The notes under the pieces were generated by a model. That model made no database searches. It was given only the letters and a program-made list of their open reading frames with translations, and was not told the origin of the DNA. A stretch of 64,000 nt of DNA, from positions 7,017 through 71,016 of the IMG/VR virus record IMGVR_UViG_3300037755_000216; one strand, given 5' to 3'. Of the stretch, positions 6,898 through 54,869 are shown piece by piece. Source of the DNA: a virus. Taxonomy: Duplodnaviria; Caudoviricetes. The position numbers were made by a program, and so were the translations under genes. Within the stretch, counting starts at the first letter, position 1. Each line of letters starts with the position of its first letter.

Positions 6898-7794
6898 TCA
6901 GGAGCCCGCGATGCCGCGCCAGTTGCTCCAGCCCTGCGAGTAGCGCTCGCGCAGCTTGTAGCGCAGCGTGCCGGTCTCGAACGCACCCTCCAATCCCTTC
7001 TTCAGGCCGACACGCTTGAACGCACGCAAGCCTTTCTCAACGTCCGTAATGAGGAACCACTTAGCAGGGTCCGACAGGTAGACGTTGATCGAGAAGCCTG
7101 GCACCACGTTCAGGTGCTTCAGCGCGTTCACGTTGTTGGACTGCGTATCGACCTGGTAGGGCGAGGCGAAGATGCGAGTCGCCACGTACTGCAGCGCCGT
7201 CGGCAGGATCGCGCGCTTGATCTTGGCCTTCACCGGCAGACCGCGCTCATCGTCCCAGTCCGCGATCTGAATGGTCAGCTGCTCAAGCGCGGCTTCGGAC
7301 AACTGCGCAGGCGTAGCCAGCGTGTTCGACAGCACGCCCCCGCCACCCAACGGATGCGCGGTCGATAGCAACTGCACGTCATCGCCGCCGGGGAAGTTGG
7401 AGTCGAAGGCGTAGTTCAGGATGTTGGCCCGGCGCAGTTCCTTGCTGTACAGCGTGGACAACGTCATGGCCTTGGAGATCTCTGCACCCATCGACAGGTA
7501 CAGGTTGTCCTCGACCGCTTCCTCCGAGATCGACACCGCCTTCACGATCGTCGCGTGGTGGTAGCGCGAGACATAGGTCTCGAACATGTCGTCGTAGGTG
7601 ATGGCCGCGCCTTCGCCTTTTTCGTTCGCCGCGCCGAGGCCCGTGTGCATCACGTCCTCTTCGTAGGCTTTGTTGGAACTCTCTTCGGTGAAGATGTCCG
7701 TCCACTGCGTATCCCACCGCTTGTAGGTGAGACCGACAACAGAGTTCAGCCCTTCTTGGAGCTGCTTGCGCTGATGCGCTCGTAAGATCGTCAT
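6898..7794 (-). CDS. Major capsid protein (HK97 fold)
   Basis: 298 aa; LQEGLNSVVGLTY, EEDV..TGLG, RERYSQGWSNWRGI typical of this capsid family; follows scaffold and decoration genes. Confidence 0.88.
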   Translation of the reverse strand: MTILRAHQRKQLQEGLNSVVGLTYKRWDTQWTDIFTEESSNKAYEEDVMHTGLGAANEKGEGAAITYDDMFETYVSRYHHATIVKAVSISEEAVEDNLYLSMGAEISKAMTLSTLYSKELRRANILNYAFDSNFPGGDDVQLLSTAHPLGGGGVLSNTLATPAQLSEAALEQLTIQIADWDDERGLPVKAKIKRAILPTALQYVATRIFASPYQVDTQSNNVNALKHLNVVPGFSINVYLSDPAKWFLITDVEKGLRAFKRVGLKKGLEGAFETGTLRYKLRERYSQGWSNWRGIAGS

Positions 7795-7806
7795 GGTCGC
7801 AGCTCC

Positions 7807-8367
7807 TTAAATGGCCGTCAGTGCGGCGGCTTTGTAGTGGTCGGAGATCTGCACAACGATCTTCGCGAAGTCGCCATACGCGTTGTCGTCCTCCTTGAGC
7901 AGTTCCTCGATGCGCAGCTGGTCGCCCGAGCCGACCGTGCTTGAATCAAGTTCGGTCGTGGAGTTGCCCAGCGCATTGGGGGCGCCAATGAGCACGTCCG
8001 CGAGCGCGCCAATGTCGGCTGCCACAATGTCCTCATCCCCCTGGATGCCGAACAGCAGGGCTGGATCGTCAGCGACGGCGGCTTCAGCGACCGTGCCGGT
8101 CGTAAGCGTCGTGCCAGTAGCCCAGTTGGGTTTGTACTGCACGCCGTCGGAGTTGAAGTACACGACACCGAAGAACACGCCTATCAGGCGCGCACCAGCG
8201 GTCGCGATGTTGATGTTCTTGGAGGTGTTGACCGGAATGACCGGATCACCCTTCCCGATGTTCGAGGCAAGGCCCGAGGCGATCAGGTGGGTGTTCAGTC
8301 GATTGGGGTCGCCACCGGTCGCATGCCGAACGACTCGAAAGCCGGCCGGCGCGTCTCTGTTGGCCAT
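7807..8367 (-). CDS. Capsid decoration/cement protein
   Basis: MANRDAPAGF start, IGKGDPV, GVFFGVVY, DDPALLF motifs; immediately before the capsid gene. Confidence 0.7.
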   Translation of the reverse strand: MANRDAPAGFRVVRHATGGDPNRLNTHLIASGLASNIGKGDPVIPVNTSKNINIATAGARLIGVFFGVVYFNSDGVQYKPNWATGTTLTTGTVAEAAVADDPALLFGIQGDEDIVAADIGALADVLIGAPNALGNSTTELDSSTVGSGDQLRIEELLKEDDNAYGDFAKIVVQISDHYKAAALTAI

Positions 8368-8397
8368 GTGCGCATTCCTCTGGCTGCCTGAATATGG

Positions 8398-9030
8398 TTA
8401 GTCATCGGCAACGCTGGCTTGCTGCTTCCGCACGGGCACGCGATCTCGGTAGATACCGGAGGTTTCCTTGTTCACGTCTTCGACGATGGGCATCGCCGGA
8501 TGCGTGATGGAATTGGGACGGGGCTTGTTCACTTCCCGCGTCGCCTTGTCGCGCCGTGTGTTGTAGTAGTCATTGCGTTGAGCCAGCAAATCATCCGGGA
8601 TTTTCATCAGGATGCTGCTGTCATTCCCGATCACATTCCCATAATCGGACAGGTGCTGAGTCGGGAGAACTTTTTGCGGGTAGTCTTCCTTCCTCGCAAA
8701 TTCCCAGCCTTCCTGTAAATGCGCGATCATGTTTTCGTGGTCACCGCGGTTGCGGTTATCGCGGCGTACCCACTCACTGTGGTAGCCGGGTATTACAGGC
8801 ATGCCAGGCAGGCCATAGGCGCGCTGCCATCGACGTGCCGGGGGTCGCTCAGGCTCCTTGCGCTCCGCTGTCGCGTTGGTACGCGAGGAGTGGACCGTAT
8901 GCCGGACGGCTTTGAGATCGCCTCCAGTCTTCCGAGTGCGGCGTTGGCTTGCCTGGCGGGCCAACTCCGGTTTCGCCTGCTCTTTACGCAGGTTCGCGGC
9001 CAGCAATTCTTTCTCACTGGCCTTCATCAA
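8398..9030 (-). CDS. Conserved head-module protein
   Basis: 210 aa, GYHSEWVR...LQEGWEF motif; ATGA-coupled to the scaffold gene. Confidence 0.7.
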   Translation of the reverse strand: MMKASEKELLAANLRKEQAKPELARQASQRRTRKTGGDLKAVRHTVHSSRTNATAERKEPERPPARRWQRAYGLPGMPVIPGYHSEWVRRDNRNRGDHENMIAHLQEGWEFARKEDYPQKVLPTQHLSDYGNVIGNDSSILMKIPDDLLAQRNDYYNTRRDKATREVNKPRPNSITHPAMPIVEDVNKETSGIYRDRVPVRKQQASVADD

Positions 9031-10106
9031 TCTTGCTCCTCACCGGCCAAGGCTTGTGACTCTTCCCAGAAGGTCATCACATCCTCGTTGTTGTCCGGGT
9101 CCATCTTCATCGCCCGCATGGTCGCGATTTGCTCCTTGGAGAGCGACGCGCGGCGGGTGCGCTGACGGGCCGGCGGGGCGCCGCGGTCTTCGTGGGACAT
9201 CACAGGCGCTCGGCGATTGGCGGGCGTGAAGTCACGATCCTCGTCCTCGACGTCATCCTGCGCGTCTCGACCCTTGCCGTTGCCGTTATTGCCGCTGCCA
9301 TTTTTATTGGCTGGCAAGCCTGCGATCTCCAAGGTGGGGAACTTCGCGTGCAGACGCTTGGAGACTTCCTCGAAGTACTCCGGTGTGGCGCGGTCGAACC
9401 CATCCTCCTCGACCTCCTCATCGATGACCAGTGCACCCTGCACCTCGACACGGTAGTCGGGATCATCCCACCAATCGGAATTGGCACGGATCCACTTCTT
9501 CGCTTCCTTGGTGAGCCGTGGGTTTTCCGCAGTCTCCGCAGCTTCGCGACGCTCCTGCTGGAGCGGCTGCGCGCGGGCCTGCAAGGTGCTGACCTTTCCG
9601 GCCTTCATCGCCCAGTACTGGCCTTCCTTCCTCGCGATCACGGCCTGCAGGCGCGCGGCCTCCTTGCTGTCGCCCTTCTCGTTCGCGAGCTCGAGCTGGG
9701 TCTGCAGCGCGGCCATCTCGGTCTCGTGCGCTGCGTCGCTCGTATCCGCTCGGTCGATGTTCAGGCCCGAGACGCGGCCGTTGAGAGCGGCGATCTCGCG
9801 CTGATGTACAGCCTGGATCTCAGCTATCTTCTGGTCGTACTGGCGGGTGATGTTCTTCGCAACGCTGCGGGTGCGGCGCTGGATCTCCCGTGACATGCGC
9901 TGGTTGCGACGCTTGTCGTCAGGGCTTTCCTGACTGTCACCATCCTCCCCTGACAGTGACAGCGCATCCTCGTTCGATTCCCTTACGCGCGAAACGGCTT
10001 TGGACGGATCCTTCTCGTCCAAGTCGATCTCGATTCGCTCGTTCGCCTCATCGCGCGGCGGCGTCCATTTGCGCTGTGCTTGAGGGGATGACTGTGCTTC
10101 TGGCAC
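9027..10106 (-). CDS. Capsid scaffolding protein
   Basis: Highly charged coiled-coil protein, 359 aa, placed between portal and capsid genes. Confidence 0.75.
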   Translation of the reverse strand: MPEAQSSPQAQRKWTPPRDEANERIEIDLDEKDPSKAVSRVRESNEDALSLSGEDGDSQESPDDKRRNQRMSREIQRRTRSVAKNITRQYDQKIAEIQAVHQREIAALNGRVSGLNIDRADTSDAAHETEMAALQTQLELANEKGDSKEAARLQAVIARKEGQYWAMKAGKVSTLQARAQPLQQERREAAETAENPRLTKEAKKWIRANSDWWDDPDYRVEVQGALVIDEEVEEDGFDRATPEYFEEVSKRLHAKFPTLEIAGLPANKNGSGNNGNGKGRDAQDDVEDEDRDFTPANRRAPVMSHEDRGAPPARQRTRRASLSKEQIATMRAMKMDPDNNEDVMTFWEESQALAGEEQD

Positions 10107-30187: not shown

Positions 30188-30511
30188 TCAGACCGGATCT
30201 GGTGGCGAGCACGGAACATCACCGAGCCACTTCTTTCCGCCGCATTGGGTGCAGATCTGCTGCGCAAGATCCTCGCAGCGATGCTCTGCCAGCAGGATGC
30301 TCGCACCGCAAGCAATGCAAATACCATCGTCATACACGTGAGGCACAGCGCTTGGTTCTGCAGCAGGAACCGGCAGCGGCACCTCACACCATCCATGTGC
30401 GTCATCTAACTCCCAAATGCGGCCCTCATCGTCTAGCGCATGCAAAACCCAGTTGCACTGAGTCGTGTGGTTATTGGCGACACCGGCGGATGTGATCTGA
30501 ATGAATTTCAT
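30188..30511 (-). CDS. Cys-rich hypothetical protein
   Basis: Start moved to ATG 30511 (ATGA overlap); CIACG and CTQCGG. Confidence 0.55.
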   Translation of the reverse strand: MKFIQITSAGVANNHTTQCNWVLHALDDEGRIWELDDAHGWCEVPLPVPAAEPSAVPHVYDDGICIACGASILLAEHRCEDLAQQICTQCGGKKWLGDVPCSPPDPV

Positions 30512-30846
30512 TGGCCCGATTCCTTCGCTTCCCCAGCGCTCCTTGTTTCCTCCAAGCGTCTCGGCGACTGCTCGAACACCTTTGAGAATGACCGTTCCTC
30601 GCTTGGCGACAGAGTCACTGGCGTTTCCGGAGATGCTATAGCCGTCAGCTCTTCGATTCGCTTTGCCGCGCGATGAGCCAGAATGCCGATCATCACGAAC
30701 GTGTCTTTTTCTACTTCCATCCGCTTGCGATGCGGGATGTCGCGTAGGGCCTCGACCAGCCAAGCATCTGAGTGAGCGGAAATCGCTCGTCGCAAATCTT
30801 CGAAGTGCTGATCGGCAAGCCGACGCTGAATGTCTCGGTTACTCAT
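30508..30846 (-). CDS. Hypothetical protein
   Basis: 112 aa with coupled overlaps. Confidence 0.6.
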   Translation of the reverse strand: MSNRDIQRRLADQHFEDLRRAISAHSDAWLVEALRDIPHRKRMEVEKDTFVMIGILAHRAAKRIEELTAIASPETPVTLSPSEERSFSKVFEQSPRRLEETRSAGEAKESGQ

Positions 30847-31114
30847 CCGCGCTCTCTCCCTGCGCTGGGCATCCAGCGACGTGATTCCCGACCCTGCCTT
30901 GGTAGTACGGGCATGTGCAGCCAGCGCGGGCTAACTGGTCTATCTTCTTCGCCTCGCACTCTGGCCGCTCCAGCGCTTCCTGATACTCGGAGTCACTTAC
31001 AGGGTGATCGTGTCGCAGAGGAATCCCCATGCGGATCAGCGCAAGCCGCGTCCTGAATCGACCCATTGCGCGCTTGAGGATCGCTTCTTCCTTCGAACTA
31101 AGCTGGTCACTCAT
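30839..31114 (-). CDS. Hypothetical protein starting inside repeat A
   Basis: MSDQLSSKEEAILKRA..., C-terminal CTCP...H...C; ATG 31114. Confidence 0.6.
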   Translation of the reverse strand: MSDQLSSKEEAILKRAMGRFRTRLALIRMGIPLRHDHPVSDSEYQEALERPECEAKKIDQLARAGCTCPYYQGRVGNHVAGCPAQGESADE

Positions 31115-31898
31115 GTTCTGCTCGCTTCGTTTGCGATGAGCTACGCAGCTCCGCCCGGATCTCCATCCACAGCTTGCCGAGCATGTTCTGCCCGTCGCGC
31201 TTCTCGCCCCATCCCCAGTAATCGTCGCGCCACGAGTTCTCAATCAGCTCGCGGCCGCCGGTCGCCAGCAGTTTGCGGCGCACGTAGTCGTGTTGTTCAA
31301 CCTTCGCGCGTAGGATTCGTCGCATGATCTCAACCTTCACCGCGTCCCAATCCTTACGCCGCAGTCCCTTATTCCGTTCAGCAATCTTGAATGCGACGTG
31401 AGCGGATTCCGAGAAACGGACGCGCTCTGCAACTTCCGGCGCGCACCGGATGAACTTTTCCCAGTGATACGCATGCTCAGACGTCGGAAAGTCAATGTTG
31501 TGCCACTTCATCTGGAAGGATGAGAAGTTCGACAGGACGTAGCAATCCTGCTCATAGAAAAAAACCTGCGTGTCAGTGTCGAGCATGAGCGGACCAGCGT
31601 CCGGCGGTTGCGATGGCCTGCCAGCGATGTATTTCCGGGCTGCAATGACCGCTCGCTCCCAGTCGGTCTCACCGTCCGATGTAACGTCGCAGTGTCGTAG
31701 CAGGTCACGCAGCAATGCATCCGCTCGCGGTTCGAGCGCAACTCTATCGCGGTCCCGTAGTTCAATCAGCTTTTCCGCCTGCTGCTGGAGAGACGCCGAA
31801 ACAAGCCGCTCTTCTTCCCGATCCTGCAGCGCCGCGCGCTTGAGGATCGCTTCTTCCTTCGGGCAAGGCTCGTCACTCATGTTCTGCTCGCTTCGTTT
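31068..31898. repeat. Direct repeat A (65 bp): 31068-31132 and 31834-31898
   Basis: 28 bp identical, 10 bp variable, 27 bp identical; spans gene stop/start junctions. Confidence 0.92.
31107..31880 (-). CDS. NADAR (YbiA-like) family protein with chimeric N-terminal extension
   Basis: FFY...LSNF...FPTSEHAYHWEKF...DW...MRRILRAK..QH...KLLATG.RELIE...DDYWG...GQNMLGKLWMEIR. Confidence 0.9.
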   Translation of the reverse strand: MSDEPCPKEEAILKRAALQDREEERLVSASLQQQAEKLIELRDRDRVALEPRADALLRDLLRHCDVTSDGETDWERAVIAARKYIAGRPSQPPDAGPLMLDTDTQVFFYEQDCYVLSNFSSFQMKWHNIDFPTSEHAYHWEKFIRCAPEVAERVRFSESAHVAFKIAERNKGLRRKDWDAVKVEIMRRILRAKVEQHDYVRRKLLATGGRELIENSWRDDYWGWGEKRDGQNMLGKLWMEIRAELRSSSQTKRAEHE

Positions 31899-32132
31899 TA
31901 CCTGAACACCGATATAGCAACCGGCGCTGATCGCCTGGCTCATCGACATCGCTTATCATTATTTCCAGCTCTCCAGAGCGGACGAGATTGGAAAAGCGGG
32001 CCATCAGTGCGCCAACATCGCTAGGTTCGCGCGCAACTCTATCGCGGTCCCGTAGTTCAATCAGCTTTTCCGCCTGCTGCTGGAGAGACGCCGAAACAAG
32101 TCGTTCTTCTTCCCGATCCTGCAGCGCCGCGC
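31736..32132. repeat. Direct repeat B (102 bp): 31736-31837 and 32031-32132
   Basis: 100 of 102 bp identical; encodes ALQDREEERLVSASLQQQAEKLIELRDRDRVA in two adjacent genes. Confidence 0.92.
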
Positions 32133-32433
32133 TGAGCTTCTTTTCGGCGGCGGCCAGCTTTCTTTCCAGATCAGGTAACTGCGGTTGCGGCGTTCCCCAT
32201 CCGATCCTAGCCAGCAGACTCTCGATCTCGCCAGTCAGCACCACGCGGCCAGATTCGTAGCGGGCGACGTCTTGCTGTAGGCGCTCGATCTCAGCACGCT
32301 GCCACGCAATGACGTCGGTCGCGTATTCTTCCCTGGCTTGTCGCTCTTGCTCATGAGCCACTAAATTGATCTTTGACCATCGCGCCAGATAGTCGGCAAA
32401 GACTGGTTCTTTCGATGAACTCATGTCTGTCAT
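31873..32433 (-). CDS. Coiled-coil hypothetical protein
   Basis: 186 aa, contains repeat B and ends in repeat A (KRAEHE). Confidence 0.65.
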   Translation of the reverse strand: MTDMSSSKEPVFADYLARWSKINLVAHEQERQAREEYATDVIAWQRAEIERLQQDVARYESGRVVLTGEIESLLARIGWGTPQPQLPDLERKLAAAEKKLSAALQDREEERLVSASLQQQAEKLIELRDRDRVAREPSDVGALMARFSNLVRSGELEIMISDVDEPGDQRRLLYRCSGKTKRAEHE

Positions 32434-32651
32434 GCTCGCTGCTTCCTCAGTTCGTTGCCCTGCCTGACCGCCAACTGCTGCGCCTCCAGCAGCTGCAGCT
32501 TGTACTGGTCGCGCTCGGCGGTAAGCGTTTCAATCTCTGCAATCGCCATCGCACGCACGCTGCGGCAAGGCGCGCATTTCTCCAGCAACTCGCAGGTGTC
32601 GTGCTTGAGAGAGATTAGGGCGAGGCTTTCTTCAGCTGGCTCATTTGTCAT
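32430..32651 (-). CDS. Hypothetical protein
   Basis: 73 aa, coupled overlaps. Confidence 0.6.
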   Translation of the reverse strand: MTNEPAEESLALISLKHDTCELLEKCAPCRSVRAMAIAEIETLTAERDQYKLQLLEAQQLAVRQGNELRKQRA

Positions 32652-32883
32652 TTTTTATCTCCTTCAGCGTGCGCGACTCAATCCAATTCATCGCGCAGTT
32701 CCACGCGATTTCGAATGTCAGACGGATGCGGTTCTCCAAGTACTTCGGGTCTGAACCAATGTCAGCGGTGTCAAACAACGATCCATGGACCTCTTTTAGC
32801 CGGCGCCACTGTTCGTTGTAGGCGGCAACCTCAAGGGAGACCTGGAGCTTATTCTCGGGTGTCCGCGTAGCATCGGCGCTCAT
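32641..32883 (-). CDS. Hypothetical protein
   Basis: 80 aa, coupled overlaps. Confidence 0.6.
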   Translation of the reverse strand: MSADATRTPENKLQVSLEVAAYNEQWRRLKEVHGSLFDTADIGSDPKYLENRIRLTFEIAWNCAMNWIESRTLKEIKNDK

Positions 32884-33218
32884 ATCGATAGCCCCGCGAT
32901 GCCGTCCAGTGCCCGTTTCAGTGCCATGAAATCGCCGTTGACAAATTCGCCGCCCATCGGCACGTCGTCAGGCATGCGATCCCATTTGTCGTAGCAATTG
33001 CGCGCGGCAGTTATCAGATCTGCCAGCGACGGTGATGCGAGCCGCGCCCTGGCCTGAGCCGGGTACCGATCAGCGGACTGCTGGTCGCTCAGGCGAGTGC
33101 CATCGGTGAGTAAAAAACGGCGCTCTGGCAACACACGCGTGCCGTTGCCCAGGTCGAGCAGAACGGTGTCCGTGGGCGGCTGTTGCTTGGCCCATTCGAT
33201 TAGGTCAGCGATGATCAC
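32880..33218 (-). CDS. Hypothetical protein
   Basis: 112 aa, coupled overlaps. Confidence 0.6.
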   Translation of the reverse strand: MIIADLIEWAKQQPPTDTVLLDLGNGTRVLPERRFLLTDGTRLSDQQSADRYPAQARARLASPSLADLITAARNCYDKWDRMPDDVPMGGEFVNGDFMALKRALDGIAGLSI

Positions 33219-33562
33219 GGCAGGCTCCTGATGTATTCCAGCGCGGCGGATCTGATGGCGAGTGGGCCTGTACTCGCATCAGCGTCGAAAAGGCCAATCC
33301 TTGACGATTCAGAATCTCTCGCGAATGTCTCAACGTGAAATTTGTTCATCTCAGAGAAAAAATGCACCACCATCCCTTTGCCGCGCAACGCATCTAGGAT
33401 CAGCCCTGCGTCGGCCCAGGTGGTGAAGATTGGCGTCGTATTCGGCATGTCGTAGAACCTATCGGGATGAATCTGCCATTTTCCACGGCATTCAGCCGGG
33501 TCGCGCCGCCGCCACCCGAGCAGCTTCAAGCAGATCAATTCATTTTCTTCATCGGTCGTCAT
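33215..33562 (-). CDS. Phage ABA-sandwich-like domain protein
   Basis: ENELICLKLLGW...PIFTTWADAGLILDAL...GPLAIRSAAL; ATG 33562 coupled to the sigma stop. Confidence 0.6.
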   Translation of the reverse strand: MTTDEENELICLKLLGWRRRDPAECRGKWQIHPDRFYDMPNTTPIFTTWADAGLILDALRGKGMVVHFFSEMNKFHVETFARDSESSRIGLFDADASTGPLAIRSAALEYIRSLP

Positions 33563-34083
33563 GTTCTGTCCCAACTCATCGTCCTCAGGCGGGCCTTGCC
33601 TTGCGTCACATACTTCTCTACTGTGAACTCACTTAACCCTAGTTTTTTAGCGGTTTCCGCATACGACAGCCCGTCCCTCTTGTGACACAGCAACACTGCC
33701 GCATGCGTTGGAGGCAGTTGCGCAAGCGCCTTGTCGATCTGCTGCTGCAGATTCAATCGATCAGCCAGATCGTCGGGCAGTACGCAAGAGGGCTGGTCGG
33801 ACCATTCATCGACGGTGTCGCTATCGACAGTAATATGTTCACGTTCCTGTTCTACTTCGATGCGGAAATCCGCCAGCACATGCGAGGCTATGCCATATAA
33901 GTAAGCGAGGGGTTTATGGACTACCTTCTCATTGTCGAGCCTGAGCAATCGGCAGTACACCTCCTGTGCCAGGTCATCGACGTCCTGTGGCTGGCGCAGG
34001 CGCCGCATCAGGTAGCGATGCAGCTCGCGGCGGTAGCGGCCGAAGGTGGTGGCGAATGAAGAAACACGTCCGTTGATATCCAT
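33559..34083 (-). CDS. ECF (FecI-like) RNA polymerase sigma factor
   Basis: Region 2 YLMRRL...DVDDLAQEVYCRL...PLAYLYGIA; region 4 LAQLP...LLCHKRDGLSYAETAKKLGLSEFTVEKY. Confidence 0.9.
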   Translation of the reverse strand: MDINGRVSSFATTFGRYRRELHRYLMRRLRQPQDVDDLAQEVYCRLLRLDNEKVVHKPLAYLYGIASHVLADFRIEVEQEREHITVDSDTVDEWSDQPSCVLPDDLADRLNLQQQIDKALAQLPPTHAAVLLCHKRDGLSYAETAKKLGLSEFTVEKYVTQGKARLRTMSWDRT

Positions 34084-35778: not shown

Positions 35779-37008
35779 ATGACAGATCAACGACAAGTGG
35801 GCGGACCGAGCCGCAACCGCAATAAGACAGAGCCGCAACAGCAGGCGCGCACCGCAACTGTCGATTCGAAACCGCTGCCGCAGCAGGACATGCCGCCGCC
35901 GGCCGGCGCTGGCGATCAGGCACCGGCGCTCTATCAGTTGCCACCGCAGGCCAAGGCCCGCGGCATCAGTGAGGAGCAATGGTTCACGCTGCGCAACAGC
36001 CTATATCCAGGCGCGCTGCCCGAGTCGTGCGTCATGGTTTGGGACTACTGCAAGGCGCGCAAACTGGATCCGATGAAGAAGCCCTGCCACATCGTTCCGA
36101 TGGAGGTCGAGGTCAAGAAGCGCGATCCGCAGACGCGCGAGGTGACGAAGCACAAGGAATGGCGCGATGTCGTGATGCCAGGCATCTACGAGTACCGCAC
36201 GACCGCGATGCGCACCGGTTTATATCTCGGGCACAGCGAGCCCGAATACGGCGACGACATTGAATCCTTCGGTGTAACAGCCCCGTACTGGTGCTCGATG
36301 ACCATGTACAGGTGGAACGAGAAGGCGACGCGCGTCACCGAATTCCCCGTCAAGGTGTTCTTCGAGGAAATCTGCGGAACGAAGTGGGGCACCCAGAAAG
36401 GCGAACTCGTGGCCAACAGAAAATGGAGTCAGTCGCCGATCCAGATGCTGACGAAATGTACCGAGGCCGCCGGCCTGCGCGAAGCCTTCCCCGATGAGTT
36501 GGGCGGGGAGCACACGATCGAGGAGATGGAGGGGCGCGTGATCAGCGATGGCGATGACAGCGTGGTGCTGAATGTCCCGCCAGGCCAGTCCCGCAACGAC
36601 ACTGCCAAGGAGGCGCTGCGCGCGCGCCAAGGTCAACAGAGCGCACAACAGCCTCGCCAGGAAGCGCAGCGCCAGCCTGAACAGCAGCGCACCGCCCAGA
36701 CGCAACCAACGCAGCAACAAGCGCGCGCTGCGGCGGATGCCACTTCTGAAGCGACCGCTGCGCCGGCCGAGGATGAGGAAATCCCGTGGGAGAGTAAGCA
36801 GGGCAGCAGCACTCAGCAGCAGAAACCCTCCCAGCCGAAGACGCCGCAGACCGATGAGGAGTGGGCACAGGCCATGAAGGATGGCGCCAAGAAGTCGCGC
36901 GCGGACCTAGATGCTATCTGGGATGCCCATCTGGCCGCATGCGATGCCGCCGGCAAGGAAGTCTCGGTCGACATCGAAGCGGTCTATCAACTCCTTGCAG
37001 GAAAATGA
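35779..37008 (+). CDS. bet: Bet/RecT-family ssDNA-annealing protein
   Basis: YCKARKLDPMKK.CHIVP, MPGIYEYRTTA.RTG.Y.G, QMLTKCTEAAGLREAFP; long Gln-rich tail. Confidence 0.9.
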   Translation: MTDQRQVGGPSRNRNKTEPQQQARTATVDSKPLPQQDMPPPAGAGDQAPALYQLPPQAKARGISEEQWFTLRNSLYPGALPESCVMVWDYCKARKLDPMKKPCHIVPMEVEVKKRDPQTREVTKHKEWRDVVMPGIYEYRTTAMRTGLYLGHSEPEYGDDIESFGVTAPYWCSMTMYRWNEKATRVTEFPVKVFFEEICGTKWGTQKGELVANRKWSQSPIQMLTKCTEAAGLREAFPDELGGEHTIEEMEGRVISDGDDSVVLNVPPGQSRNDTAKEALRARQGQQSAQQPRQEAQRQPEQQRTAQTQPTQQQARAAADATSEATAAPAEDEEIPWESKQGSSTQQQKPSQPKTPQTDEEWAQAMKDGAKKSRADLDAIWDAHLAACDAAGKEVSVDIEAVYQLLAGK

Positions 37009-43842: not shown

Positions 43843-44364
43843 TTAGAGTCCCAGCACTTTTCTGATTCTCAGCCAATGACCGATCCTGTCATCCAATCCG
43901 TTGTAGCCACCGTTGATTTTTTTCGTGATGGCACCGAAGGCATCCTTGTCAGCTAATGCGTTCAGTCCCTTGGTTTTCCAAAACCACCCAGATGCACGGC
44001 ACGCCGCTTCAGTACCTTGAAGAAGCTCTGGGCTTCCGATGAGGTCAAGTGATAGAGCGGCTCCGCAGGATTCGTAATTGGCCCGTCCGGTAATTTGGAT
44101 GAGCGCGCGCCCCTTGAATCGCTTTCCGTCACCTGGCTTGGTGTTGCCAAGATCAAGCCGACCTTCGTAGGCTGATCCATCAGCGATCTCCTGTGTGTAC
44201 CGAAACGATCCAGATTCATGGGCAAGTTGCGCAATGAATGCGGCTTGGCGCATCGAGGAATGGATCTCGAACTCCTCCATAGCATCGGTGAGCGCTACGG
44301 CAAACAGCGCAGCGCGCTGGCCGGCGAAGGGAATCATTGCGAGTAGTGTTTCTGGGCTCATCAT
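43843..44364 (-). CDS. Endolysin, glycoside hydrolase family 19
   Basis: [20 protein letters not shown]...[30 protein letters not shown]. Confidence 0.93.
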
Positions 44365-47300
44365 GCTCTCATCTGTTGTTCTTGCATGGCCTTGGCTACG
44401 ACGGGCCGCGGCTTCGCCGGCATCGCATCCCACAGTGCAGCGAATTCTGGATAGCCCGCTTCGCGGATCGCAGCGACCGCCGCGGCTTTGTTCTTGCCGG
44501 CGATAAGTGGCGCTAGTTCGCTGGTCAGTTCGTCGGCTGTCTTGCGCTTGAGCGTATCTGGCACCTCGGACTCGTCCTTGTATCGTTTCAGTGCTTCGAC
44601 CTTTCGATCGATTTCTTTCTGGAAAACCTTGCGCACTTCCTCGATCCCTTCCTCGTTGAGGTTTCGGTCGCGGATTTTCTCGCCCAAACGCCGACGGGTT
44701 TCGTCGATCTCAAAGCTCATGCTGCGGATGTTGCGATCGCGGGTGACTTCCGGGTCGATTGGATAGACGCTCACACCGAATAGGCGCAGCCATGCTTGCG
44801 TCTTCGTCAGTCCCGGCTCACCGGAGCGCGGATCGACCTTGCCGGTGTAGGCGTCCTTCACCTTGCCCATCGCGCCCTTTTCGGTCAGAAAGCCCGGCGC
44901 GGCCATGCCCCACGCATAGGACAGGTACGACATCGCTTTCATCCCTGGCGTGTCCCCTGGCGCCGCGATCTCGCGGCCTGTGAATGGGTCGATGCCGGTC
45001 TGCCATGCAGCGACCGCGTCAGGTATGGGGCCTGAGAGCAAGCCCAAGGTCTCTGCGGACTGCCGAAACTCACCCTGACTCACCTGTGCCATCGTATCGG
45101 CGAGCATTCCCCACGGCACCGTGTAGCCCAAATCGATGACCTGCAGCCGCCCCTCCTGGTCGCGCTTAGGCATCAGGTACATGCCGCCCTTGGACTTCAT
45201 CCACTCAGGGAACGCTTTCGCCAGCCGGCGCAGTTCATCCTCCCCGGCGCCGAACGCAGCCATGACACTTTCCTGCAGCGCGTAGCCAGCGGCGATGTAC
45301 GGCAGGTACACCCATGGACGCTTGATCGCAGCCTCAGCCATGCGCGGCAGCGCGAAGTAGGTGTACGACAGGAAGGGAATTCCGAACGGTGCATTGCGCA
45401 GATACCGAACCGCGCGCGGTACCAACGAGTAATCGAATACCCACTTGTGCGACTCGATCATGGCATCCGCTTCCGACAGTCCCTGCCGCTCCATGCCATC
45501 GATCAGCTTGGCGATCTTGAAGATGGCCTCTTCGAACTGGTAGACGTCGCCCACTGCATTGACGAACTTCGCCCCCATCGCGTGGATGACGTTCGCCGTC
45601 GGCTGTTTGGACTTCTGCAGCAGAATCCACTCATCGCGGATGCGCGACAGCTCGCGGTTGGCGAAGGTCGCTTCCTTCAGTCCGAACCGCACAGCGATCC
45701 GATAGAAGTTGTCCTTGCGGATCACGCTGTCGAGCGCCTGCACCAGCCGCTGAGGGACTCGATGCATGGGCATGCCTGACAGGTGCAGCATGATCGTGTT
45801 GCCCATCATGTTGCGAAAGTGCGAGGGGACGTTCATCGCCACCTTGGACGTCTTCCACGCCTGCCCCAGCTTCGTCAGCGCGCCGCCCTGGCCGAAGATG
45901 TTCTCCAGCAGCGAATCGGTCTGGATCATGTTGTAGGCGCCGACCAAGTCTTCGTGAATCTCCTTGCGCACGTACAAGCCGCGCAGCGCGCCATAGCGCG
46001 GTGAGTTAGGGATCTGCTCGAAGTCGGCTAGATCAACGCCCTGCATCGCCTCGATCGCGCGATTGGCCAGGGTATCCATCTGGTCTGCGATGCGGCGTGC
46101 CTTCTCCGCGATCGCTGGCTTGGACCGCAAATGATCGGCCTGCCGGCGCAGGTGCGCGGCCTCCTCAGCCATCCAGAACGGTGAGACCTTCCTACCATCC
46201 CACTCCACCATCATCACCTCTGGCGTCCACGCCTTGTTCTGCGAGATGGTGTTCAGGAAGTTCATGATGGCCAGATCCCGCATGGTGCGCGACAGCCCGA
46301 ACGCTGACAGGAAGGCTGGATCCGTGATCTCGCCCAGAATGACCTTGCGCACCTCCTCCGGAATGTCCTTGCGCTGTTTCAGGTAGCCCATGTCGGAGAG
46401 CTTCTTGCCCGTGCCCATCGCCTTGCGACCCTTACCGTCATCCAGAATGTGACGCAGGTACAGCCGCGGCAGGTACTGATCCTTGTACGTCTCGTATGAC
46501 TCCTCATTTAGCAGCCCAGCATCGACCAGCGCACGGCCCTGCGCGTCGATCGCTTCCTTCACATGGATCGCCGCGTCGCGGATCTTCTGGTTCTCGACGC
46601 TGTCGGCCGTGGCGCCGGCTGTGGTCAGGTACGCATAAACGCGCTCGCTATCCTCGGTGCTGGCCTGTGAGAGCGTTGAGAAGATGTCGCGCGCGATCTC
46701 TCGCACCTGCGTGAGCGCACCGAGCGTCTTGTACCGCTCCACCAGATATTCCTTCGCACCAGGCAGCCGGCCAAGCGCGCCGTAGCGCCAGCCGAACTTG
46801 TTGTTGAAGCCGTCGATGATGCGGTTCGCCACGCCTGCGTAGCCGCGCGCCTCGCCTGACTTCTTCGGGATCACGCGCTGCAACACATCCACCTCGACAG
46901 TGCGGGTGTCCTTGCGCTGGAACATCGGCAAGCCTTCCAGCGCAGCGGCGCGCATGGAGTCGGTCACGTCAACAGAATGAATTTTTTCGTACTCCGCACC
47001 ATGTACTGGTGTCCCGCCGCCGTCTGCAGGGTTTGTGAGGATCGCTGTTTGCCCAACCCGCGCGCCCCACTTCTTCACCATCTTGTTGACTGCCGCCGGC
47101 AGGATCTGGTCGTAGAAGCCGATCATGCCTTCGCCACCAACCTGCATATCTAACCCTTCAACTACTCGCACCTCTCTACCACGCGGACTGGTGTACACGG
47201 GCGCGGAGCTAAGAAGCCTTTCCGCCAGCTCGATGCCGACAATATCCGGCAGTTCTTGCGGGGTGATCAACCGCTCCATCGCTATGCTGCCATCTGGCCG

Positions 47301-50300
47301 CCATGCGCGTAGCGACCCCGATAAGTCAGCCTCGATCGTTACCCATTCGAGCTTACTGATGTGCTTTCGCAAGCTGTACCGATCCGCCTGCGCCTTGCCA
47401 GGCAACCACGCAATGCGCTCGAACCCATTCTCCGCCGCCCATCGGATCATTCGCTTGAAGGCGAGTTCGGGCCATGTGGTTTTGAATGGGGCGTCAGGAA
47501 CGCCAGTTCGACTCTCTATTGTTCTCACTGCCTCGATGCGTTCGCCTGGCCGCAAGAGTTCTTCTGCAAGTGCTAGCGATGGAACTGTGCGCACAAATTC
47601 TTCATCACGGAAAATATTGAACGCGGTTCCATCTATCTCCTTGACCTTATAGCCGCCCTTGCGCCCAGCCTGATGCCAGTCGCTCTGGATCTCCTCAATG
47701 AACAGCACTCTCTTTCCATCTGCATCCACGCGCTCATTGAAGCGGACGTGGGCGAGGATGTTGGGCTCAGACCAGTGGCTGGAGCGATATACATCGGGAT
47801 TGTTGTGCGAGTACTTCGTATCCGAGTCGAATGCGTTGCCGCGGCGCTCGGCATCCGCCCTGGCTTCCTCGTTCGTGTCGAAAGACGCGACTACCTTGCC
47901 GGTCTTGGTATCGAACACTTGATGCGTCTTCGTATTGATCGGCAGCGTCAGCAGCAGCTCGCGGTAGTTCTCGCCGCCGGGCGTGGTGTATTGGGCGTAT
48001 TGCGTATGTTCTGCATCACCTTCCCAACTGGAATTGATCATTTCTTGACGAGTGGCACGCAACTGATCAGCAAGTTCCGCCGCTTCCTTTGGAAGCCACT
48101 TCCCAGTCTGGTGATCTTTCCATCGCGCGGCATCGTCCGCGACATGGTGATATCGCTCGCGCCCGTCGTGAGTCTCCACAGCAGTCATTGGCGTGCCATC
48201 GTAAACATCCGGCACGTAGCCAAGCGCGGTCAGGCGCACCACCAGGGCGCCATGCCGCTGCTGTAGCTCATCCGCCGGGCCGCCATGTGCCGGAGCGCCG
48301 TGTACCACATCCTGCACCTGGATCTGATTGGCATAGAGGAAGTCCACCACTTCCTGCTTGGTGGCGCGGTGATCCAGTGCGTTGATCCACTCCTCCAACC
48401 CGCTCCATTCGATCTCTTCCTGCTTGGTGCCCGGCATGTTGCGCAGCGTGGCGAGCCATTCATGCGCCGTACCCTTCTCGCGCTTGGCTGTCTCTGCGTT
48501 GCGCGTCAACTGTGAATAGAACGTCGGCGCTTTGGTCTGCGCCATCGGCTGCGCATCTGGCATCACCTCCGACGTGCGCCCTGCCTTCAGGAACGTCTGC
48601 ATGTCATCAATCAGCCGGCCCATCGCCTCCTTGCTGTATTTCTCCGGCAGCTTCATCTCGACCGGCACGTTGAACACGCGACGCAGGAACGCTTCGATCT
48701 TCGCTATCAAGTCCTGCACCCACTTGCGCATGTTGCCTGGAACGGGCTTGCCGGCCAGATACTGCGGGGCGTAATAGGCCAGCACCTCTTCGGCAGCGAT
48801 GCGGCGCTGATTCAGGTTGTTCCAGTCGAAGGCGTCGCCGAACTCCACGCGCCCCTGACGGCGCACAGCCATCGGCTGGTCGCGCGCGATGCCATCTAGG
48901 ATTGCTTCGTGGGCTTCTTGGCCGATGACCGAGCGCAGCCCGAAGTGCACAACCGTCTCATGCAGCACCGAGTTGCGCACGTCATCGATCGTGGTGTACT
49001 CGTTTGCGATGAAGTAGATGCCGCCGCGCCACTGAATCGCGCGCACGTCGCCGGCTTTGATGCCGCGTTCGGCGTTCGCTTCGAGCAGATCCGCCGGCAA
49101 CTGGTCGTAGCTTTGCACCACCATCAGCCGCGGCCGCGTTTGGAACTCCCGCAGGATGCGGTTAACTTCGGCGCGCACCTCGCGCTCACCGAGCTTGCCG
49201 GCCTGCTTGCCATCGGTGCGGCGGAACATCGGATCAACAACATTGTTGCGTTCCTGCTCTGTGACAGGACTGCCATCCACATGAGTGATCTTGATTATCG
49301 AATCATCGAACACCACTAGGTTGCGCGTCCCGCCGCTCTTGCCACGCGATCCTTCATCCTTGTAACGCAGCCCGTGAATTCCAAGCGACGATAGATACTT
49401 GGATGCCGCATGATCATCTGAGTACCTGATTGGGTACGTTTTATCTCCACTGCCACCCTGGCGAGTGCCGCCTAATTCGTAGGCAAGGAAGGCATAGATA
49501 CCCGAACCGCGCATCTCACTGTTGCGCGTTTCCATCGGCGCCGCGAAGTCGTTCAGATTGTCCTTGTACCGTTTGAACACGCCGGCATTCTTCAGAATCT
49601 GCTTTACATGATCCGGCTGCTTGGACCATTCGGCATCCCAGTCGAGCATGGCAGCCACAGCCATGTCATCGATATCCACTGCGTAAAGCGATCCACGTTC
49701 AACCTTGATGTCTTTCTTCTTATGGTTCCGCACGAAACCATTCAGTCGCGTCCAATACTCGGATGCAGAAAGTCCAACTTTCTGGGCGGTCTCCTCCATA
49801 CCTGGATTGCCTTCGTACTCTGACAACCATCGGCGCGTAGCGGCTCGGATCTCTCGAAGATCATTGAACGCCACCAAGTTGGCGCCATGCCGCTCTGGAC
49901 CATCCGGCAATTCCTTGCCATTCACGCTTAACCGAACGTGACTGGATGAGTCAGACAATCGTCGCTGATAATCTTCGGCAACCGCCTTGTTCTCTGCGAA
50001 GTACAGCCCCCACCCATAAGCAGCAGCGCCTTCACCGGTGCCAAAAGTGCCTTCATCGAGTTTGAATTTCCCGAAACGATGCGGCGAGCCGTGATATGCG
50101 CGATGCAGCATGAGATCGTTGCTGCGCGGATCGAAGGTGCCGCGGTTGCCGGTGGCGCTTTTGATCTGGGATGGCTCGAAAACCACGTAATGATCAGAGC
50201 GGATTGCCGCCAGCACGGGAGAATCCTCTATTTCCTTGAGGATCAAACCATCATGACCATCCCGACGCGCCGCATCTATGTGGTCCTGCACCTCACCGGT

Positions 50301-53300
50301 GGAGATCAGCCCACCAACCTTCACCACCAAAGGATTCTGCATGGACAGGAACACTGGGACCACGTTGGCGCCAGTCACGTCGTCTCGAACGGCGTCCATC
50401 TCAATGGTTTCCCACTGCTCCATAAGCCTTTCGTAGCGATCCCAGTTTCTCGCGGCCTCGGATTTTTTGATGTCGGCTTGCAGCTTCGCGATCTTTTTCT
50501 CGTGATTTGAGAGATCAGCAACTTGCTTGCGAGCGGCTGAATCCGCATACAGGGAAGCTTCCTTGTTGTCGCTGGTGAAATAGAACGCCGTGGCGCTATG
50601 CGCCTTGGTCATTGATCCAAGACGTTCTTTATCGAAGCTCTCGAAAGACTGGTTCGTGCCGTGATACACGCGCAGCGGTTCGCCGTTCGCATCTACCACC
50701 TTGGACTTGCCGAACCACTTTTTGAAGGCGGGCGTGGCAGTCTGGTCGGCGCGCTCGAACATCGGCTTCTGTCCTTGCGGCGCTGCCTCTTCTTCTGGGA
50801 TCTCGTCCGGCACCTCCTCGCGCGCCATCCTGGCGGCTTCCATCTCGGAAACTCCTTGATCGCGCTCAAACTTCTTTATGAGCTTCAGATGTTCCTGCGC
50901 CAGCAACGACGTCACATCATAAAAGCTGGTTGGATTCTCGTACTGCTCCAGCTTCAACGCCTTGTGGCGCTCGGCTCCAGCAATGGCTTCGCGCTTGGTT
51001 GGAAATGACTGGCCCGCAGTGCCGTAGTAGGTGTCGTAGATCCAGTCACGACCGCTCTTTCGAACAGCCGCAACCGGGTCATACGCGATGATCTTGGCCT
51101 TATCGAGACCCATCAGCTTTCTAATGCGGTCAGCCGCCGACATCATCCGCTTCGCCGGTTTCGGCTTGTCCTCGACATCGGCCTGCTTGCGCGACTCGCT
51201 GAACATATCGTCTGGCTTGCCGGTCTCCACAGACTCCTGGCCGCTGTTGCGGCGCCGATCCTTCTCCGCCTCGATGCGCTTCAGCGCGGTCTTCACTGAG
51301 TTGGCGTCCCCGAACATGTCGCCCTGGCCCTTGCCAGTTCGCTCGGCCATGGGAGCATCGGACTTGAACACGTAGTCCTTGCTGCCGCGCTTATGCGCCA
51401 GCCCGCGCTGCACGAACGAATCCCATAACGCAATCGCATCCTCCGACAGCTCGTGAACCGTCTCACCAGTAGATAGCTTTCGCGGCTGCGTCGAACGCAA
51501 CGGCTTGCCTGTCTTCTTCAGGCTTTCGCGATTCATGTCTTCGTAGAATCTGGATGCAATCCCCTGCCTGCGTAGTTCATCAGGGATCAGCGCATTGCGA
51601 ACGATGTAGCCGCCCTTGTCCTTGAGCACCGTGAACATGTTGGCGCGTCGAACCTTATGCGGATCGCGCACAACGTCATACACCGAGAAGCTGCCCTCTT
51701 CGGTCTTAAAATCGCGCTGCTTATGAATCTTTGGGCCGCCGGTGCGCTCGAACATCGGCTCATCGGAGCGCACGCCGCGGCCGGTTGGGATCGCCGGCTC
51801 ATTCGCATCCTGCTGCTGCTGGCTCTCCATCTGCAGCGCCATGCGCTCCAAGCGCCGCTCGAAGGCGTCCAGTTCGGCGTCCGTCATGCCGCCTGGATCG
51901 TCGTTCAACTGGGCACCGAGCCGCGCGACCTCTGCGTCATCGGCGTCCATGCGGTCCAACATGCTCTTCACATGCCGCGTCTCAGCCGCGTTCAGCTTCT
52001 CCCCGGCGATCGCCTTGGTGACAGCGACCGTGGTTGCCTTGCCTGCGGAGTTGCCAGGCAGCGGCGCTTCACGCTGCACCGAGGCGAACCACTCCTCATG
52101 CGGTAACCATTTGGTGCGGTTGAGCACTTGTGGATTCACCGAATCCTCATCCGTGATCGCACGCCCACCGATTTCCTGCCAACCAGCGCGCGTCGCCATG
52201 CTGCGCAACTGGTCGGCGCGCTTCGGAATTCTCTCGTCGTGTTGGACTTCTGCAGGTCGCGCAACTTCCGGTTTTGTCACCGCACTTGCGGTGCCTCTTA
52301 CCGCAGTTGCGGTGGCCGGCTCCGATGCAAGAGGCTTCTTCCATGCAACTGGCTTCTTCGTGGCACCGGTGCGGACCCACTGCTTGAACTTATCCACAGG
52401 CATTGGGGTGACGGCACCCATGCCCCGCCAGCCCTTGGGATAGTGGGCGAGGTACAGTTTCTCGGCCGCCTGCTGGGATGGTGCGGCCAGAACGATCTTG
52501 GCTTCGTCATAGCGCCGTCCGTCGGGCGTCAACTGGTCAATCACGTAGACGGTATCGGAGTCCGGCTGATCGCCCATGTAGACGTCGACCGCATCCCCGT
52601 CCTTCGCCTCGGTGCGTGAGATGTAGCCATAGTCGCTGGCCATCGTTCTGGTCCAAGACTTGCCGCTGGCGTCGGTCCCGGATCGCCGCGAGCCCTTCAG
52701 GTTCTCGATGCGGATCGGCAGGCCCTGCCATGTGATGGCGGGCTTCTTGTAGTTCCCGGCTTCCTTCTGCCCATCGGTCGGCTGGGCCGGCGCTTCCACC
52801 GGTTGACCCAGAACCATGGCTGCTGGCTTGACCGTCGATGCTGCTGCTGAGATTGGCTTCTGGCCTGCCATTGGTGAAGGCTTCTGCGTGCGCGTCTCTG
52901 GCGGCTTCTGCGTGGCTCTGGATGCCACATCCGCCCGCACGTTCCTAACTTCCTCTCGCGCCATGTCAGCGCTGCCGTACCAAGCCACCGGGCTATCGTT
53001 GATCGCCACCCCGTGCAGGCCATCGGGACTTTGGACGTAGGTGATGTCGCGCGGCTTGGTATCCTGGCGAACATTCACCTCGATCGCGTGGTGCTTGGCC
53101 TTTATCAGCTCACGGCGCTGCGCCATGGTCGGTTTCTCGGGCTCGGTGCCAGGCGAACCGATGACGGCGGCCGGCGGCCCTGCACCAGGTTCCTCGATCT
53201 CAACGTCGGCGAGTTCCTCATCCACGGCGAGCTCATCATCCTGACGCCGGAACTCCTCCATTGGATCGGTCTGTAGGGTGATCTCTTCCGGTGGGGTCTC

Positions 53301-54869
53301 ATCCACCCGGATCTCACCAGGTAGCATCTCGCCATCACCCTCGATCGTGATGTCCTCGCCGGCAGGTTCTTCATCCACCTGCATGGCGACGTCCGTCAGC
53401 ACCGGCGGCTCAACGTCGATCTGCGGCTGCTCAATGGCGGGCTCGCGGGCCTGAGCGCGGGCGTTGGCTTGGTCGATCACCAATCCCATCAGCCCCGATG
53501 CGGTGAGCTGGGCGCCAGCGCCAACGATCGTCGCAGCCGTTGTGTCCTTCAGCGCCTGCTTGATGTCCGCCATGGTGACGTCATCGCGCAGCTGCAGCCG
53601 GTAGTCATCGGCGATTTGCGCCGCGGTGGAGACGTTCTCCCCGAGCACGTCCTGCACTAAAAACTCGGCAGCACGCTTCGCGAAAGGCGATCGCTTGGCC
53701 AGCGTGCCCAGCGGAATCGCTTCCGTCAGGCCCTGAAGTCCTCCAAGATACGCGGCGCTCAGCGCTGACTCGCCCTCGCTCTTGCCGATTGCCCGCAGCT
53801 CTCCATAGCGCTGCGCGCCCGACATCCCGCCCAGGGCGACCAGCGCTGGCACCTGCCCGCCGGGGATCATGGACCCAGCCGTCACGATCGGAATCGTCAC
53901 CGCGGCGCTGGTGAGCCCTGACTGCACTGCCCGCTCCACCGGGCCGGCATCGACAGGAAGTGCTGCCTGTGCCTCGGCGCTGGCGCGGCGCGTGGTTCGC
54001 GCAGCCCGTCCTTGCTCCATCTCCCCAGCGAAGGCGCGGTCAGAGGCGCCCTGAATCGCAGCCTGCTGCTGCGCGCCGAACCGCGAGGCTTGTGCTTGCG
54101 AGTCGTGCAGACGCTCTGCGTAGCGCGTAGCGGCTTGCGGTGAGTCGAACTTGCCCAGGTGCTGGCCGGTGCGCCGGTACTGCTCGATCGCCTCATCGTT
54201 GCTCAGGATGCGTCCATCATCCGAAACGGTCGGCACAAGGATCTCACCGTCATCGGTACCAAAGGACATCGACCGCACCGTGCTCACGGATCCATCAGCG
54301 TTTCGAACCTGCGGACGGTGTGCCAAATCGATGTTGCCCGCCTCGATCAGTCCTGGTGCCGATCCGGATGGCGCACCGTCGGGTGTAAACGCTGGATCCT
54401 GATATGACTGTTCGGCCGCCAGCGCCATACGCGTGTTGGTGTCTGCGAACCCACGGCGGATGCCCGCACCGGTCCCTTTCAATATCGCCAGCGCGCCGCG
54501 GCCCACGACGCCAGGGGTGCGCTGGATGGCGCGCATTGTGGTGTCATCCGTGCCTTGAATCGATGACGGCAGGCCGCCCTCCTTGCCCATGCGCGCCATG
54601 GATCCAGTCTCAGGCACGGCTTGCGCGAGCGCCGCGCCCATCGCCATCTGGGTGCGGTTGAGCTTCGGATCGGTCGCCGCCCGCGTCATTGGCCCGCGCT
54701 GGCGGAAGTCCCCGGGCAATCCCACCTTGGTGGCGAAGTCCTGGAACGGGACGTCGGCGTAGTGGGTCTGGTGCAGCTTCGCGGCGAAGTCCTGGTCCGG
54801 CAGGTCAGCGTAGGGGTCGACGCCACCGTTCTGTGCCGCGAGCGACTGCCGGTATTCGCCGATATTCAT
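44361..54869 (-). CDS. Giant (3502 aa) polyvalent internal virion/ejection protein
   Basis: InPase-like (~52380-52790), GNAT-like (~51400-51720), ART-PolyVal-like (~50130-50740), second ART-like (~49290-50105), HExxxH zincin-like (~48600-49200), EEIQSDW domain (~46930-48530), helical C-terminus. Confidence 0.85.

Follow-up and report, generated by a model that had tools for sequence, protein, structure and literature searches.

A phage NADAR gene between two coding repeats: anatomy of the locus and a proposed origin by unequal crossover

How does a phage come to carry a NADAR gene that lies between two copies of a direct repeat and whose own 5' end is stitched together from both of its neighbours? 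The question is raised by a 64-kb stretch (referred to here as the window) of the 71-kb IMG/VR virus record IMGVR_UViG_3300037755_000216, a metagenome assembly in which a minus-strand gene chain, g73 > U > NADAR ORF (open reading frame) > Dn > g112, is linked by stop/start overlaps of 4 or 8 nucleotides (nt) throughout. Phage NADARs are a recently recognised counter to defence toxins that ADP-ribosylate DNA, and this locus allows all three recombination joints to be read at base resolution. We think it fairly likely that the locus represents two versions of one modular early gene, left in tandem by an unequal crossover. NADAR would here be a shuffled protein module, not a free cassette.

Repeats, joints and modules of the locus

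The elements on which the argument depends are the following (aa, amino acids).

31873-32433, minus strand: U, an early protein of 186 aa (ORF list)
31107-31880, minus strand: NADAR ORF, chimeric, 257 aa (ORF list)
30839-31114, minus strand: Dn, 91 aa (ORF list, homologues)
31834-31898, minus strand: repeat A, upstream copy, which runs from U's final 7 codons and stop through the 8-nt overlap into the start of the NADAR ORF (MSDEPCPKEEAILKRA) (base comparison)
31068-31132, minus strand: repeat A, downstream copy, which runs from the final 7 codons and stop of the NADAR ORF through the 8-nt overlap into the start of Dn (MSDQLSSKEEAILKRA) (base comparison)
32024-32132, minus strand: repeat D1, U copy, encoding ALQDREEERLV...RDRVA(R)EP in U's second long helix (base comparison, model of U)
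31729-31837, minus strand: repeat D1, NADAR-ORF copy, codons 17-50 (base comparison)
31899-32023, minus strand: segment X, unique to U, its C-terminal module (protein scan, sequences)
31133-31728, minus strand: segment N, a helical/disordered linker (residues 51 to ~95, ending in SQPP) and the NADAR domain up to SSQTK (Pfam, PDB, identity with contigs L053 and L054, model)
31834-31837, minus strand: A/D1 joint, a 4-nt microhomology, GCGC, where the copies overlap (base-by-base comparison of U, NADAR ORF and Dn)
32115-32142, minus strand: 28-nt stretch that encodes KKLSAALQD and spans the start of D1 (blastn, 100% identical to L053:5121-5148)

Along the minus strand these elements follow one another as U-front, D1, X, A, D1, N, A and Dn-rest. 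They form two head-to-tail units, D1-X-A and D1-N-A, with common ends, different middles and a single novel joint, which is the pattern of a tandem duplication. The copies of repeat A are identical at 60/65 positions, with exact tracts of 28 and 27 nt, and each carries an 8-nt stop/start overlap, ATGAGTGA (...KRAEHE stop / MSD...); the initial annotation had described these copies, their spacing of 766 bp and the overlap correctly. It had also reported a 102-bp repeat at 100/102 identity, which proved to be the inner part of a longer one: the two copies of D1 agree at 106/109 positions, with exact tracts of 70 and 28 nt. Against these 70 nt, the longest exact direct repeat in each of five shuffles of the window has 15-17 nt, and the repeats are therefore not due to chance. 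Outside the fibre genes no comparable repeats were found in the window, the repeat exists there in two copies only, and an exact-pattern scan with repeat A returned no match. Relative to the U copy, two of the three differences in D1 are synonymous, and all five mismatches in A fall within 10 nt (31096-31105), every one of them non-synonymous. Five mismatches in a 12-nt patch of A stand against three in the 162 repeat positions that remain (Fisher p = 3e-5), and this clustering argues that two diverged parents or lineages contributed to the locus.

Started at the ATG at 31880, the NADAR ORF is a chimera of four parts: a Dn-type leader, a segment of U, a unique linker with the NADAR domain, and the tail of U. 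Codons 1-16 (MSDEPCPKEEAILKRA) come from A and agree with Dn's first 16 codons at 12 positions, and codons 17-50 come from D1 and correspond to U residues 103-136, the sole difference being residue 48 (Leu here, Arg in U). Codons 51-250 are unique to the gene (segment N), and the final 7 codons and stop, again from A, are U's tail. The stitched 5' end that had been noticed earlier, 16 codons like Dn's and 34 of U's meeting at GCGC (31834-31837), is therefore real. In the AlphaFold model the leader and D1 together form one helix (residues 8-46), followed by two short helices, a disordered linker and the domain.

The only novel joint is that from the end of A to the start of D1, at GCGC. At the D1/N joint, identity with U stops after GAACC (Glu-Pro), precisely where U's X module starts. 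At the N/A joint, the native end of the NADAR domain, the codons for SSQTK, is shared without change, over 17 nt, by the window, L053 and L054; three different tails follow in the three sequences, that of the window being the tail of U, and 8 nt (AAACGAAG) are common to both parents. The microhomologies at the joints are thus 4, 5 and 8 nt long, and one of them lies inside a palindrome: the 28-nt stretch contains a 13-nt palindrome, CAGCGC-G-GCGCTG (hairpin 32122-32134), one arm of which includes the GCGC crossover site. This stretch is 100% identical in the window and L053 although the gene has otherwise diverged, and an exact-pattern scan of IMG/VR found no other occurrence. We regard it as a candidate hot spot of recombination or binding site for a protein. 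No inverted repeats were found at the ends of the units, the direct repeats being 65 and 109 nt of coding sequence. A transposon-type cassette (miniature inverted-repeat transposable element, MITE, or mobile insertion cassette, MIC) was rejected for lack of terminal inverted repeats and of a short target duplication.

The gene from which most of the shared sequence comes, U, consists of an N-terminal module (residues 1-55), a helical hairpin and a small C-terminal module, X (residues ~139-177), and its AlphaFold model (predicted local distance difference test, pLDDT, 83) shows a two-helix hairpin and a small alpha/beta X domain. No match to U was obtained in Pfam, PHROG or a PDB fold search, and a protein atlas consulted for U yielded nothing of use. 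When 1.84 billion representative proteins were scanned with phmmer/HMMER, the first ~55 residues of U were found to head more than 20 proteins, 75-364 aa in length, whose other parts are unrelated. The X module (U's last ~45 residues) in turn ends three other proteins (P0139, P0141, P0143) and a 295-codon frame, L031 ORF 3774-4661, of a related virus record (G002). None of these proteins belongs to a Pfam family. P0129, which has the U N-module, and P0005, which has NADAR, have a linker module and the tail TKSGDPK in common while their intervening domains differ. U thus belongs to a family of early phage proteins that are modular in build, and its N-module (SKEPVFADYLA-WSKVN-VAHEQERSAREE) is an undescribed domain of such proteins. 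A further protein, P0003 (189 aa, from a Logan contig), has 22 consecutive residues identical to U (ERLQQDVARYESGRVVLTGEIE) and a KKLSA-LQ motif before it diverges, and is another mosaic of the family.

The same arrangement of genes can be followed in relatives by means of g73.

32430-32651, minus strand: g73, a small early gene (ORF list; synteny anchor)
30508-30846, minus strand: g112 (ORF list)

L053 and L054, two metagenome phage contigs from the Joint Genome Institute (JGI), have the same local order, with an extracytoplasmic function (ECF) sigma factor, several small genes and one long gene. In L053 the g73 homologue (4810-5004, ending ...NELRKQRA) overlaps the start of the long gene by ATGA, which is also the overlap between the stop of g73 and the start of U in the window. 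The product of this long gene, P0007 (350 aa), contains N-modules including KKLSAALQD, an SQPP linker module, NADAR and a tail, and its NADAR domain is 70% identical in aa sequence to that of the window; the equivalent in L054 is P0006 (414 aa). At the nucleotide level the window and L053 are 72% identical in the sigma gene, 84% at the end of g73 and start of the next gene, and 75% in NADAR, the region 31608-31118 being 75% identical to both L053 and L054. Elsewhere, L031 has a g73 homologue upstream of a U-like gene with one gene between them, and G001, whose sigma factor (83% identity) makes it the nearest viral relative on that measure, is without U, NADAR and Dn.

NADAR homologues number in the thousands at 50-78% identity, many of them on viral contigs, and their N-terminal extensions are highly variable. 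On a weakly supported FastTree of 115 NADAR domains the extension changes state ~34 times, near the mean of 38 for shuffled data, which suggests that the NADAR domain often enters and leaves fusions; at least 7 of these changes are forced by well-supported branches. The (S/T)(Q/H)(P/E)P linker ahead of NADAR is not general, being present in only 3/55 extended homologues. Among cultured phages a protein search found NADAR relatives at no more than 41% identity, and a DNA search across 50,697 phage records gave no match.

Two other features of the early operon recur at gene junctions. Across 30188-34083 of the window and in L053, L054 and L040, many unrelated small early genes start M-S/T-D/E-Q-x-(S/T)-S-x-E, in part because of the ATGA and ATGAGTGA overlaps. 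In the window, Dn and g112 meet at a ribosome-binding tail, GGGAGAGAGCG (Gly-Glu-Ser; 30839-30860). It is also found at the junction of the NADAR fusion and the Dn-like gene in L053 (6030-6050) and L054, and is thus another conserved junction element.

Origin of the tandem and its predicted rearrangements

Under the reading that we favour, version 1 of the modular gene would be U itself, with its N-module, coiled-coil hairpin, X module and tail TKRAEHE, and version 2 would be the NADAR ORF, a U-type gene in which X has been replaced by the linker and NADAR. Version 2 would have lost all that lies upstream of U codon 103 and would start instead with the 16-codon leader that is also found on Dn. 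This state would have been produced by a single illegitimate crossover that linked the U/Dn junction, at its end, with the beginning of the coiled-coil segment; the site would be GCGC inside the 13-nt palindrome. Two diverged relatives are the most likely parents: one would have had U with X and the other a U::NADAR fusion such as that of L053 and L054. In an alternative order, an intragenomic duplication would have been followed by a module swap; it would leave the same three joints and is indistinguishable here. Since the novel joint is in frame and the U-to-Dn stop/start overlap was copied along with it, the NADAR ORF should be translationally coupled in the early operon as Dn is.

Several points weigh against this reading. 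The likeness of P0007 to U is present only in patches, and no genome was found in which U with X is followed directly by Dn or in which the U N-module is fused to NADAR; likewise, an exact-pattern scan for a natural U::NADAR fusion across D1 found none. The tandem is known from one metagenome assembly, and luck alone would put such a joint in frame 1 time in 3. In addition, an internal Met99 ahead of the NADAR domain could also serve as a start, in which case the chimeric N-terminus may not matter.

The leader of Dn bears on the direction of exchange. The only known homologue of Dn proper, P0124 (87% identical, from a 13.4-kb JGI contig), has as its N-terminus the upstream variant of A (MSDEPCP), the one that heads the NADAR ORF in the window. 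More distant homologues, L053:6046-6345 and L054:6238-6495, begin (GTG) at the position of Dn Met17, which suggests that the 16-codon leader of Dn is an add-on; repeat A terminates 1 nt ahead of the Met17 ATG (leader region 31064-31114). The leader also resembles the N-termini of the U family (MS[DE]Q..SSKE), and borrowing between Dn and the NADAR ORF could accordingly have run in either direction. Scans of genome collections with Dn and the U N-module found no prophage relatives.

It can be imagined, though we hold this view only tentatively and think it improbable, that the slot after g73 is a hypervariable gene system for the display of modules, a counter-defence analogue of polymorphic toxin loci in which conserved N-domains (SKEPVFADYLA-WSKVN-VAHEQERSAREE) would carry swappable C-terminal effectors. 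The effectors would include X, NADAR, a WQPIETAP domain and zinc ribbons, and they would be exchanged at linkers that are conserved and very short (the KKLSAALQD palindrome, SQPP or HEP, and SSQTK). The window would then hold two versions in tandem, interconvertible by the phage's RecT, and both products might associate via their shared 34-residue helix.

A different origin was put forward in the initial annotation, namely that the NADAR gene was recently captured as an excisable module. In its full form this would be a self-contained cassette, mobile as a circle via the 65-nt repeats and re-inserting or amplifying with the help of the phage recombinase, and we judge it unlikely. Direct repeats do bound the gene, each with a complete stop/start junction; the phage encodes a RecT-type annealase; and in T4-type phages early-gene cassettes flanked by repeats are known to form mini-circles (PMC2839356). 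Shorter junction duplications are also present at other NADAR loci. When 28 of these were examined for flanking repeats, two were positive: in L024 a 33-nt direct repeat (30/33 identical; 4956-4988 / 5477-5509), made up of tail codons, a ribosome-binding site and TGATG, bounds the NADAR gene exactly, with a score of 23 as compared with a null maximum of 16, and L009 has a weaker junction repeat (18/20; 4952-4971 / 5446-5465). Against such a cassette, the remaining 26/28 loci are without flanking repeats, and a search for an empty-site relative of L024 yielded only N-module relatives. The unit in the window holds 109 nt from the interior of the upstream gene together with its tail, which would be unexpected of a foreign cassette, and both ends of segment N are joined to U sequence without foreign flanks. 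In the syntenic L053 and L054, NADAR is a built-in module of the resident gene at the same position. The composition of the gene is like that of its neighbours (GC 0.56-0.61 across the NADAR gene, inside the flank range of 0.53-0.62), and a search for promoter- or terminator-like sites at the repeats and the gene found none, bar the 5-bp hairpin at 32122-32134 on the opposite strand. Finally, the repeat is present just twice in the 64 kb, the copies of A and of D1 are 92-97% rather than 100% identical, with clustered mismatches in A that point to diverged parents, and the exact tracts in A, 28 and 27 nt, are at the lower limit of ~30 bp for recombination of the Red or RecA type (PMC2327257). 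A moron was rejected for related reasons: the GC content lies within the flank range, the gene is without promoter or terminator of its own, and it is translationally coupled to its neighbours.

That coexisting strain variants (U-X and U::NADAR) were wrongly chained into one contig is very improbable, for although this is a single metagenome assembly whose proteins are seen on one contig only and whose units share both ends, as the alleles of one bubble would, such chaining would require the assembly to pass from the end of A back to where D1 starts, two places with only 4 nt in common, so that the joint sequence must exist in the reads; moreover, the joint is in frame, and the copies of A differ from each other, as do those of D1, in the manner of real paralogous copies.

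The repeats would also offer ways out of the tandem, and the phage has a recombinase of its own that could act on them.

35779-37008, plus strand: RecT-family single-strand annealing protein (Pfam RecT PF03837, 54.3 bits against a cut-off of 24, 1.7e-14; phrog_2449, 6e-61)

The recombinase had been given as Bet/YqaJ. A single-strand annealing protein is indeed present, but it belongs to the RecT family rather than to Bet, and YqaJ was sought in the phage and not detected; the ORF beside RecT has only a weak match to a PHROG 'exonuclease' family (3e-7), and the phage also encodes RusA. The formal claim that one crossover between the A repeats would delete the gene and restore coupling holds, since, once the 766 bp are taken out in silico, Dn comes directly after U (186 aa). 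The claim overlooked the longer repeat, however: in silico, a D1 x D1 crossover removes 295 bp and X with them, and leaves an in-frame U::NADAR gene of 343 aa, similar in size to P0007 (350 aa). With ~30 bp as the minimum for Red- or RecA-type recombination (PMC2327257), the 70-nt tract of D1 is a better substrate than the 28- and 27-nt tracts of A, and it gives fusion instead of loss. The arrangement is thus predicted to be metastable, with crossover at D1 leading to the fusion and crossover at A to loss of NADAR, and the phage's RecT could act on these repeats. Three interconvertible states are predicted: tandem, fused and NADAR-less.

Repeats of other kinds were seen in two further phage sequences. 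L028 has a perfect 42-nt in-frame repeat (PITDGNVIDINDP) in two adjacent genes just upstream of the NADAR gene (~4410-4451 / ~4646-4687). In L008 two successive ORFs, 435 nt apart, both begin with a near-perfect repeat of 65 nt that includes a GC hairpin (~3431-3495 / ~3866-3930); it is possibly an intergenic mobile or regulatory element.

Predicted activity and role of the NADAR product

The identification of the gene as a NADAR stands: Pfam NADAR (PF08719) matches with 106.4 bits against a cut-off of 35.1 (2.3e-30) over profile positions 1-163 of 163, phrog_1017 with 3.6e-38, and the best PDB match is 2b3w (E. coli YbiA, 2e-24), with 8bau at 6e-6. In the P. nicotianae NADAR the catalytic and ligand residues are E43, K50, E125, D130 and W133 (the Glu of SEH, the Lys of WEKF and the last-strand Glu among them; PMC11543638). 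In the HMMER alignment their counterparts in the window protein are E135, K142, E214, D219 and W222, none of which varies in 12 homologues. The YbiA subfamily is marked by a last-strand glutamate rather than Asp or His (PMC11125620), and the last-strand motif of the window protein, ELIENSW, has this glutamate. Membership in the AdfN-T4 (gp30.3) clade was rejected on the same residue, which is His in that clade.

We predict that the product is an active YbiA-type ADP-ribosyl glycohydrolase. NADAR hydrolases act on guanine ADP-ribosylation (PMC11543638, PMC11125620), and the diverse phage NADARs tested to date reverse DarTG1 defence (PMC11825919). By analogy with these NADARs, which are of other clades, the role of the window's protein is most likely to reverse the modification when host toxins of the DarT1 or YarT type have ADP-ribosylated guanine in DNA. 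Weighing against this role, the YbiA-type branch also contains housekeeping N-glycosidases (PMC11825919), and one may ask whether the protein acts on a small-molecule N-glycoside in the manner of housekeeping YbiA, or partners the phage's own ADP-ribosyltransferase (ART) domains, where it would limit or reverse self-inflicted ADP-ribosylation. The closest solved relative of the window's NADAR is E. coli YbiA, the ART toxin YarT has a YbiA-type NADAR as its antidote (PMC11125620), and the phage encodes a 3502-aa polyvalent protein (44361-54869) with two ART-PolyVal stretches (1.8e-28). In L017 (records G018/G019), moreover, a stand-alone NADAR (4986-5468) lies 2.2 kb upstream of a 529-aa ART-PolyVal protein (7700-9289) on the same strand. 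ART-PolyVal is found in only 4/28 NADAR-bearing viral records, however, two of which look like one phage, and this, together with the results for phage NADARs cited above, makes a role other than that of counter-toxin doubtful in our view. The polyvalent protein also has an InPase domain (3.5e-51).

Comparison with known systems

The locus points to an undescribed modular family of early proteins, and it has features in common with three known systems without being identical to any of them. With the NADAR counter-defence proteins of phages (AdfN of T4 and others, PMC11825919) it shares the Pfam domain, the aligned catalytic positions, its encoding by a phage and its place in an early accessory region. 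The last-strand residue differs, being Glu (YbiA type) in the window and not the His of T4 gp30.3 or the Asp of DarG1. Compared with the NADARs of cultured phages, to which it is at most 41% identical, the protein of the window has a chimeric N-terminal extension of ~100 aa, and its activity is a predicted one.

In the PeSL cassettes of T4-type phages (Arbiol et al. 2010, PMC2839356), small early genes likewise lie between direct repeats of a gene-start element, and the phage's own machinery has been proposed to excise and shuffle the genes by recombination between the repeats (PMC2839356). The PeSL repeats, however, are units of an early promoter and a stem-loop terminator, present many times per genome (PMC2839356), whereas the repeat of the window is coding sequence (a gene tail, the stop/start overlap and the first 16 codons) in two copies only, and is accompanied by a second, nested repeat from the interior of the neighbouring gene. 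Membership in this class was rejected, as the repeats are without promoter or terminator and exist in just two copies in the window.

The mosaicism of temperate phages offers the third comparison. According to the Hendrix-type model, novel joints form at microhomologies of a few bases, and those of the survivors lie at gene or domain boundaries. The joints of the window are of this kind, at microhomologies and at gene or domain boundaries, and the phage has an annealase of the RecT type; Red/RecT-type annealases have a role in recombination at short or diverged homology (Martinsohn et al. 2008, PMC2327257). Unlike the usual mosaic, the window retains both parental versions in tandem, so that a single locus shows all three joints as well as the likely states of the parents.

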